From sequence record AH003347.2: a stretch of 1,458 bases of DNA. One strand, 5' to 3'. A model generated the notes under the pieces. The model made no database searches and had not been told where the DNA came from. It saw only the letters and a program-made list of their open reading frames with translations. Shown here piece by piece: positions 1-1,458 of this stretch; the stretch's first letter is position 1, and the number at the start of each line of letters is the position of its first letter. Source of the DNA: Escherichia phage T4. A program made the translations under genes and the position numbers.

Positions 1-29
1 GAATTCATGTGTAAAAAATTTGACTAAGT

Positions 30-33
30 GAGG
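30..33 (+). promoter_or_regulatory. Shine-Dalgarno (GAGG) for the imm-like ORF, 5-nt spacer to ATG at 39
   Basis: Sequence gtGAGGaaaacATG read directly; purine-rich core at optimal spacing from the start codon. Confidence 0.7.
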
Positions 34-38
34 AAAAC

Positions 39-347
39 ATGGAAACTTTAGTAGCAGGTTCAATTTTTATGGTTTTAGTTTCAGGCGTGTTGGCTATTAT
101 TATATACATGCTTCCATGGTTTATCGCCTTGATGCGTGGGTCAAAATCGACAGTAGGAATCTTTTTCGCATCTTTACTGTTTAACTGGTCAATTATTGGT
201 TGGTTTATTACATTTATTTGGTCAATTGCAGGTGAAACTAAAAGTCATGCGCACGCAAATCAGGTAATTATCATCAGAGAGAGGATGAAAGCAAATTATA
301 GCAGCATTGCTTTTAATCTTGATGATTATATTAAGTATATACTATAG
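39..347 (+). CDS. imm: Superinfection immunity protein (Imm-like small inner-membrane protein), 102 codons as drawn
   Basis: ORF with good SD; translation has two long hydrophobic segments (SIFMVLVSGVLAIIIYMLPWFIALM and VGIFFASLLFNWSIIGWFITFIWSIAG) and a charged C-terminal tail. The LPWFIA..RG...NWSIIGW pattern and the position immediately upstream of gene 42 match T4 imm. The start is uncertain: in-frame ATGs at 69 and 108 would give 92 or 79 aa, and T4 Imm is, from memory, about 83 aa. Confidence 0.78.
   Translation: METLVAGSIFMVLVSGVLAIIIYMLPWFIALMRGSKSTVGIFFASLLFNWSIIGWFITFIWSIAGETKSHAHANQVIIIRERMKANYSSIAFNLDDYIKYIL
306..341 (+). promoter_or_regulatory. Candidate T4 middle (MotA-dependent) promoter: MotA-box-like aTTGCTTTt (306..314), 12-nt spacer, -10-like TATATT (327..332); predicted start near 339..341
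   Basis: Read from sequence. The MotA box consensus (a/t)(a/t)TGCTT(t/c)A, centred near -30 and 11-13 bp upstream of a sigma70 -10, is established knowledge. The match here is imperfect (T where the final A is expected) and the region is AT-rich, so a chance match is possible. Confidence 0.28.
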
Positions 348-407
348 TGTAACAGTTCCTCTTATGATTCCAACTATTATTTTAGGTTGGAGTTTATTAC
401 TGTTACA
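348..407 (+). repeat. Nested inverted repeat / predicted RNA stem-loop in the imm-42 spacer: outer 9-bp perfect stem 348..356 (TGTAACAGT) with 399..407 (ACTGTTACA); inner hairpin 369..374 (TCCAAC) with 386..391 (GTTGGA), extendable to 366..394 with G-U pairs
   Basis: Reverse-complement matches verified base by base from the sequence. Function is unknown; there is no GC-rich stem or U-tract, so it is not a canonical intrinsic terminator. Confidence 0.6.
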
Positions 408-430
408 AGTTAAATATGAATGTATCAATT

Positions 431-434
431 GAGG
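431..434 (+). promoter_or_regulatory. Shine-Dalgarno (GAGG) for gene 42, 5-nt spacer to ATG at 440
   Basis: Sequence ttGAGGtttaaATG read directly. Confidence 0.7.
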
Positions 435-439
435 TTTAA

Positions 440-1169
440 ATGATTAGTGACTCTATGACAGTTGAAGAAATCCGTCTTCATTTGGGGCTTGCATTAAAAG
501 AAAAAGATTTCGTAGTTGATAAAACAGGTGTTAAAACTATTGAAATTATTGGCGCATCATTTGTAGCAGATGAACCGTTTATTTTTGGCGCTCTTAATGA
601 TGAATACATTCAGCGTGAACTTGAATGGTATAAATCTAAAAGCTTGTTCGTTAAAGATATTCCGGGTGAAACACCGAAGATTTGGCAACAAGTAGCATCT
701 TCTAAAGGTGAAATTAACTCGAATTATGGTTGGGCTATCTGGTCAGAAGATAACTATGCTCAGTATGACATGTGTTTAGCTGAACTTGGTCAAAATCCTG
801 ATTCTCGACGTGGTATCATGATTTATACTCGTCCATCTATGCAGTTTGACTATAATAAAGATGGTATGTCAGATTTCATGTGCACGAATACAGTACAATA
901 CCTGATTCGTGACAAGAAAATCAATGCGCTTGTTAACATGCGCTCAAATGACGTGGTCTTCGGATTCCGTAATGATTATGCATGGCAAAAATACGTATTN
1001 NNNNNNNNNNNNNNNNNNNNNNNNNNNNNNNNNNNNNNNNNNNNNNNNNNNNNNNNNNNNNNNNNNNNNNNNNNNNNNNNNNNNNNNNNNNNNNNNNNNG
1101 GTTGATCATTGGTGGAAAACTGGCGAAACACATATTTCGAAAAAAGATTATGTAGGAAAATACGCTTAA
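440..1169 (+). CDS. 42: dCMP hydroxymethylase (deoxycytidylate 5-hydroxymethyltransferase), thymidylate-synthase-fold enzyme; CDS interrupted by the N-run 1000..1099
   Basis: N-terminal 186 aa (MISDSMTVEEIRLHLGLALKEKDF...AWQKYV) and C-terminal 22 aa (VDHWWKTGETHISKKDYVGKYA, stop TAA 1167..1169) match T4 gp42 as I recall it. Residues known to be catalytic in T4 dCMP hydroxymethylase are present at the expected positions: Glu60 (QRE), Cys148 (FMCTN, codon TGC 881..883) and Asp179 (RNDY, codon GAT 974..976). The two halves sit in different frames only because of the N-run. Confidence 0.93.
1000..1099. other. Run of 100 N: masked or unsequenced gap inside gene 42
   Basis: Literal n characters. 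Flanking codons show the true length must be a multiple of 3, so 100 is a placeholder and not the real length. Confidence 0.95.
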
Positions 1170-1183
1170 TCGTTTAACATAAA

Positions 1184-1187
1184 AGGA
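1184..1187 (+). promoter_or_regulatory. Shine-Dalgarno (AGGA) for beta-glucosyltransferase, 5-nt spacer to ATG at 1193
   Basis: Sequence aaAGGAataatATG read directly. Confidence 0.65.
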
Positions 1188-1192
1188 ATAAT

Positions 1193-1458
1193 ATGAAAAT
1201 TGCTATAATTAATATGGGTAATAATGTTATTAATTTTAAAACTGTTCCATCTTCTGAAACTATTTATCTTTTTAAAGTTATTTCTGAAATGGGTCTTAAT
1301 GTCGACATTATTTCTCTTAAAAATGGTGTTTACACTAAATCTTTTGATGAAGTAGATGTTAATGATTATGACCGTTTGATAGTTGTTAATTCTTCTATTA
1401 ACTTTTTTGGCGGTAAACCTAATTTAGCAATTTTATCTGCGCAAAATTTATGGCAAAA
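1193..1458 (+). CDS. bgt: DNA beta-glucosyltransferase (glucosyl-hmC transferase), 5' partial: 88 codons, continues past window end
   Basis: My own translation, MKIAIINMGNNVINFKTVPSSETIYLFKVISEMGLNVDIISLKNGVYTKSFDEVDVNDYDRLIVVNSSINFFGGKPNLAILSAQNLWQ, matches the N-terminus of T4 beta-glucosyltransferase as I recall it. No stop before the window end. The gene lies directly downstream of gene 42, as in T4. The supplied ORF track does not list it, which is expected if the track reports only ORFs that reach a stop. Confidence 0.92.
   Translation, partial: MKIAIINMGNNVINFKTVPSSETIYLFKVISEMGLNVDIISLKNGVYTKSFDEVDVNDYDRLIVVNSSINFFGGKPNLAILSAQNLWQ

Follow-up and report, generated by a model that had tools for sequence, protein, structure and literature searches.

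Sequence record AH003347.2 of Escherichia phage T4 extends, in the stretch analysed here (the window), over 1458 nt, and includes a gene 42 that appears to be interrupted. A run of exactly 100 N, which is the only such run in the window and is accompanied by no further ambiguity codes, separates two coding segments that lie in different reading frames. The question raised by this locus is, therefore, whether the phage carries a genuine frameshift in gene 42, or whether the length of the run says nothing about the DNA that it conceals. The original prediction, made from the letters of the window, held that the run simply masks internal codons of gene 42.

Identity and gene content of the window

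A megablast search of the window against 50,697 phage records matched 505 of them, the top matches being 14 complete phage T4 genomes (including T4T, RB55 and RB59) with 99.0-99.1% identity over window 2..1458; an independent deposit, M37159.1, is also ~99% identical. Judged by its sequence, the window is a segment of phage T4 that runs from the 3' end of imm.1, through imm, 42.1 and gene 42, into the 5' part of b-gt (Table 1). The gene order was read from the annotations of AF158101.6 and T4T (HM137666.1), 42.1 being annotated in T4T only. Pfam models recognize the products on either side of gene 42: the open reading frame (ORF) at 39..347 matches PF14373 (Imm_superinfect) with 57.8 bits, and that beginning at 1193 matches PF09198 (T4-Gluco-transf) with 155 bits. 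An Rfam scan of both strands of the window gave nothing above threshold; a match to RF02900 (Aggregatibacter sRNA 82) on the minus strand at 478..549, within the gene 42 coding sequence, was judged to be due to chance, with a sub-threshold score of 24.9 bits against a gathering score of 51.4 (E = 0.43).

Table 1. Features of the 1458-nt window
Feature	Position	Strand	Remarks
imm.1, 3' end	1..31	+	Stop codon TGA at 29-31 according to the T4T annotation
imm, superinfection immunity membrane protein	39..288	+	Same as T4 Imm over 68 codons
42.1, small hydrophobic ORF	285..432	+	49 aa in T4T, MKSKIIAALLLILMIIISIYYSVTVPLMIPTIILGWSLLLLQVKYECIN; without Pfam family
Gene 42, 5' part, dCMP hydroxymethylase	440..999	+	Codons 1-186 and TT of codon 187
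N run	1000..1099	.	Exactly 100 N; T4 counterpart is 111 nt, AGATAAATTAGTATCTGATTTGAATGCAGGTGATTCAACTCGCCAGTATAAAGCAGGTTCCATTATATGGAATGTTGGAAGCCTACATGTGTATTCTCGTCATTTTTATTT
Gene 42, 3' part	1100..1169	+	G of codon 224, codons 225-246 and TAA at 1167-1169; same as T4
b-gt (beta-glucosyltransferase), 5' part	1193..1458	+	Continues past the end of the window

The gene that contains the N run is, on the evidence of its two flanks, the long-known gene 42 of T4, the sequence of which is known and the product of which has been expressed and crystallised. In the flanks, the identity to T4 DNA is 99.7-100%, and codons 1-186 and 225-246 of the T4 gene (AF158101.6 25479..26219, AAD42467.1; M37159.1 2664..3404) match the window, as do the neighbouring genes imm and b-gt, the Shine-Dalgarno sequence and the stop codon. 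The identification of the gene as gene 42 in the original prediction was, thus, correct, and the products of the two flanks correspond to residues 1-186 and 225-246 of the T4 protein, for which several structures are available (PDB codes: 1B49, 1B5D, 1B5E and 6A9B). There is one visible substitution with respect to T4 gp42, namely V164L, whereas residues 225-246 are unchanged; the window also has 100 N in place of the 111 nt that encode residues 187-224.

The visible N-terminal 186 residues match the Pfam family PF00303 (Thymidylat_synt) with 43.5 bits, against a cutoff of 24.3, and solved members of the thymidylate synthase family match the same 186 residues weakly, with E values from 1e-5 to 1e-3. 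T4 gp42, for which dCMP hydroxymethylase activity is established, belongs to the hydroxymethylase branch: in contrast to thymidylate synthase, it acts on dCMP, and it has Asp179 where thymidylate synthase has Asn (PMC6400193). Cys148 is the catalytic nucleophile, and Asp179 confers cytosine specificity (PMC6400193); both of these, together with Glu60, Ser94 and Tyr96, lie in the visible 5' part of the gene in the window.

Reading frames on either side of the N run

Upstream of the N run, gene 42 begins with an ATG at 440, preceded by a Shine-Dalgarno sequence, GAGG, at 431-434. The frame of this ATG is open for 186 codons (440..997) and is followed by the dinucleotide TT at 998-999; it is the sole open frame in the last 120 nt 5' of the gap, stops being present in the other two. 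Downstream, the sole open frame is that of position 1101, which yields 22 codons, VDHWWKTGETHISKKDYVGKYA, before the TAA at 1167..1169; the G at 1100 occupies the third position of a codon that is cut by the gap. Modulo 3, positions 440 and 998 both equal 2, and 1101 and 1167 both equal 0; since 103 nt (1 mod 3) separate 998 from 1101, the two frames are offset by one base. Accordingly, a literal gap of 100 nt would put base 1100 at codon position 1, rather than 3.

If gene 42 is one continuous gene, it follows that the length of the gap must be a multiple of three. The original prediction had argued precisely this, and recomputation gave the same coordinates for the gap and the frames, and the same 103-nt arithmetic, in every particular. 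A mismatch of this kind is in itself unremarkable, since a placeholder of arbitrary length will clash with the true frame in two-thirds of cases.

The distance between the flanks in T4 and its relatives

The true separation of the two segments was measured by aligning the left and right flanks to T4 separately. At the AF158101.6 locus, the left flank ends at 1603 and the right flank begins at 1715, leaving exactly 111 nt between them, and M37159.1 gives an identical spacing; in both records, the flanks sit within one contiguous gene 42 of 741 nt and 246 codons. Alignment of both flanks to T4 gene 42, which had been proposed as a check along with the prediction, has, thus, located them in a single gene, at a distance that is indeed 0 mod 3. 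For more distant relatives, window 850..1250 was used in a search at lower stringency, from which matches were sampled evenly down the ranking. In every one of the 41 sampled relatives that match both flanks (~82-99.7% identity), the span exceeds that of the query by 11 nt, corresponding, once more, to a gap of 111 nt. Together with the spacing in the T4 records, this supports the view that the run simply masks internal gene 42 codons.

The length of the protein tells the same story. When the window flanks are joined by the 111 nt of T4, the result is an open frame of 741 nt and 246 codons. The 246-residue chain 1b49_A aligns end to end, with the flanks accounting for its residues 1-186 and 225-246, and a length of 246 aa is shared by every one of the 15 members listed for the 90% cluster that includes gp42; exact T4 gp42 is, moreover, present on 207 contigs in a large protein collection. 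The length of 246 aa, which the original prediction had assumed for T4 gp42, is, therefore, the right one.

The residues concealed by the N run

In T4, the stretch opposite the gap, taken together with the two visible bases before it and the one after it, translates without stops, and residues 187-224 are LDKLVSDLNAGDSTRQYKAGSIIWNVGSLHVYSRHFYL. The estimate of about 111 hidden nucleotides was accurate, but its equation with 37 internal codons was not: the 111 nt comprise 36 wholly hidden codons, one nucleotide of codon 187 (TT|A, Leu) and two nucleotides of codon 224 (TT|G, Leu), so that 38 residues are unreadable in the window. Amongst these are Tyr218 and Arg220, both of which belong to the active-site water network of gp42, with Tyr218 also touching the pterin ring of the cofactor (PMC6400193). 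In the window, residues 187-224 are covered by the N run; in all comparable records, they form part of an uninterrupted frame of 246 codons.

Origin of the N run

By INSDC/NCBI convention, a gap of unknown length is written as 100 N. The run in the window is likewise exactly 100 N long and lies between two well-determined segments; we take it to be an instance of this convention, an attribution that rests on the convention itself and on the discrepancy between 100 and 111 nt, the length of the run being unrelated to that of the DNA it replaces. The N run is, then, almost certainly a fixed-length placeholder for 111 nt of gene 42 in a partly sequenced T4 clone. The halves of gene 42 look out of frame because 100 leaves a remainder of 1 on division by 3 and 111 leaves none; on this reading, the apparent frameshift would be an artefact of the database rather than biology, and the phage itself would have an intact frame.

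The source of the record would be a partial sequence of a cloned T4 fragment, read from the EcoRI end of an EcoRI fragment of ~1.8 kb that would carry imm, 42.1, gene 42 and the start of b-gt. The first bases of the window are GAATTC. In T4, the region is bracketed by GAATTC sites 1817 bp apart, the left one of which is at the start of the window; both the position of this site and the spacing fit a cloned fragment of such a size. An internal stretch of gene 42 would have been left unsequenced and written as a fixed 100 N, a placeholder of unknown length that may have been entered by either the depositor or the database, and the molecule behind AH003347.2 would also have 111 nt under the gap.

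Several other readings of the run can be set against the same data. Were the interval really 100 nt long, gene 42 would have suffered an 11-nt deletion, or some other change in length that is not a multiple of three, and the resulting frameshift would make it either a mutant allele or a pseudogene. The one point in favour of this is the window itself, if read literally. Strains of T4 with cytosine DNA that are used for cloning do sometimes bear mutations in gene 42, but these are amber point mutations, not deletions. Against a true 100-nt interval stand the exact coincidence of the run with the conventional placeholder, and the state of the flanks, both of which are intact, free of stops and nearly identical to T4, with the 22 C-terminal codons in the correct frame. 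Furthermore, 111 nt is the only spacing seen in the T4 records compared and in the 41 sampled relatives, the stretch in question holds the active-site residues Tyr218 and Arg220, and gene 42 is essential for the synthesis of hydroxymethylcytosine DNA in T4. We consider a real 100-nt interval to be so improbable that it can scarcely be entertained. Going by the window taken by itself, the gap could also conceal an insertion that keeps the frame, an intron, a homing-endonuclease insertion or a different length divisible by three, and T4 does bear group I introns in other genes of nucleotide metabolism (td, nrdB and nrdD). Nonetheless, the spacing is exactly 111 nt in 16 records that are at least 99% identical to the window, as well as in each of the 41 sampled relatives in which both flanks match; every listed member of the cluster has 246 aa, the solved structure is a continuous chain of 246 residues, and the 1.8-kb spacing of the EcoRI sites in T4 shows no extra DNA, such that a hidden insertion is highly improbable.

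Lastly, the stretch might have been omitted because its structure or composition made it hard to sequence, or it might have been masked at a later stage by a pipeline rather than by the depositor. Later masking is compatible with the sequence taken by itself, but a mask that preserved length would have left 111 N, not 100. For a difficult template, no point was found in favour: the T4 111-mer folds no better than its shuffles (z = -0.68, with 54 of 200 shuffles folding equally well or better), and its GC fraction of 0.34 is typical of the gene, in which the range is 0.31-0.41. With both its fold and its composition being ordinary, the notion of a stretch that resisted sequencing was rejected, and omission or masking on either account is very unlikely. 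There is, similarly, only a very slim chance that the clone or stock has a real rearrangement under the gap, be it an 11-nt deletion allele or an inserted element, that is unique among the records. Nothing points to either an insertion or a pseudogene in gene 42, and the placeholder remains our explanation of the run. A cloning junction at the borders of the gap was also considered as a candidate and rejected: TACGTA ends 2 nt 5' of the gap and TGATCA starts 4 nt 3' of it, and neither is at the border itself.

In practical terms, gene callers applied to AH003347.2 will report gene 42 either as a pair of fragments in different frames or as a pseudogene. The annotation can be put right by treating the N run as a gap of unknown length, the true length of which is 111 nt in T4. 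The importance of the observation is limited to annotation hygiene, and no biological question is raised by it.

Other differences from T4

AH003347.2 is not a perfect copy of T4, since it carries several further discrepancies. The bookkeeping of lengths nevertheless closes: window 2..1458 comprises 1457 positions, against 1473 nt in T4T, and the difference of 16 nt is fully explained by the 11 nt from the gap and a net five single-base deletions elsewhere.

A cluster of single-base differences with respect to all T4 genomes lies at 240-293, several of them in purine runs. An A-run at 240 is shorter by one A, there is an extra A at 247, GC and CG are inverted at 254-255, and the purine runs at 282-293 lack four bases. 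Owing to these differences, the imm frame is disturbed after codon 68, and the ORF in the window continues to 347, giving a product of 102 aa, as opposed to 83 aa in T4. The ATG of 42.1 (285-287) overlaps the stop codon of imm (ATGA); in the window, because of the missing A residues, this ATG is out of frame with the remainder of 42.1 (307..432). Two substitutions, one at 331 (Ile to Leu) and one at 354, are also located within 42.1.

Within gene 42, position 929 is C in the window and G in every T4 record, which changes Val164 of gp42 to Leu. A reading error is the probable cause, although a strain variant is conceivable. Neither a full-length gp42 with Leu164 nor the 102-aa variant of Imm was found among ~15 billion proteins. 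Towards the end of the window, one A is missing from a run of five in b-gt, at 1443, with the consequence that the last five visible codons are shifted, and the sequence reads AQNLWQ, compared with AQKFMAK in T4. Taken together, the differences listed so far form a pattern that is typical of an early record in which gels were read by hand, with errors.

At its very start (window 1-9), the window opens with GAATTCATG, where T4 has GAATTCTTATAATTCATG. The record may lack 9 nt (TTATAATTC, located between two AATTC repeats), or else the second AATTC may be where the clone starts, in which case base 1 (G) would come from a vector or linker half-site. A final discrepancy, at window 23/24 (position 623 of the AF158101.6 locus), concerns an extra C (GACCTAAG) that is present in AF158101.6 and NC_000866, and missing from the window, T4T and other T4 genomes. 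The additional base alters the frame at the end of imm.1, which terminates at TAA 25-27 in the reference annotation and at TGA 29-31 in that of T4T; here, it may be the reference, AF158101.6, that is in error, rather than the window.
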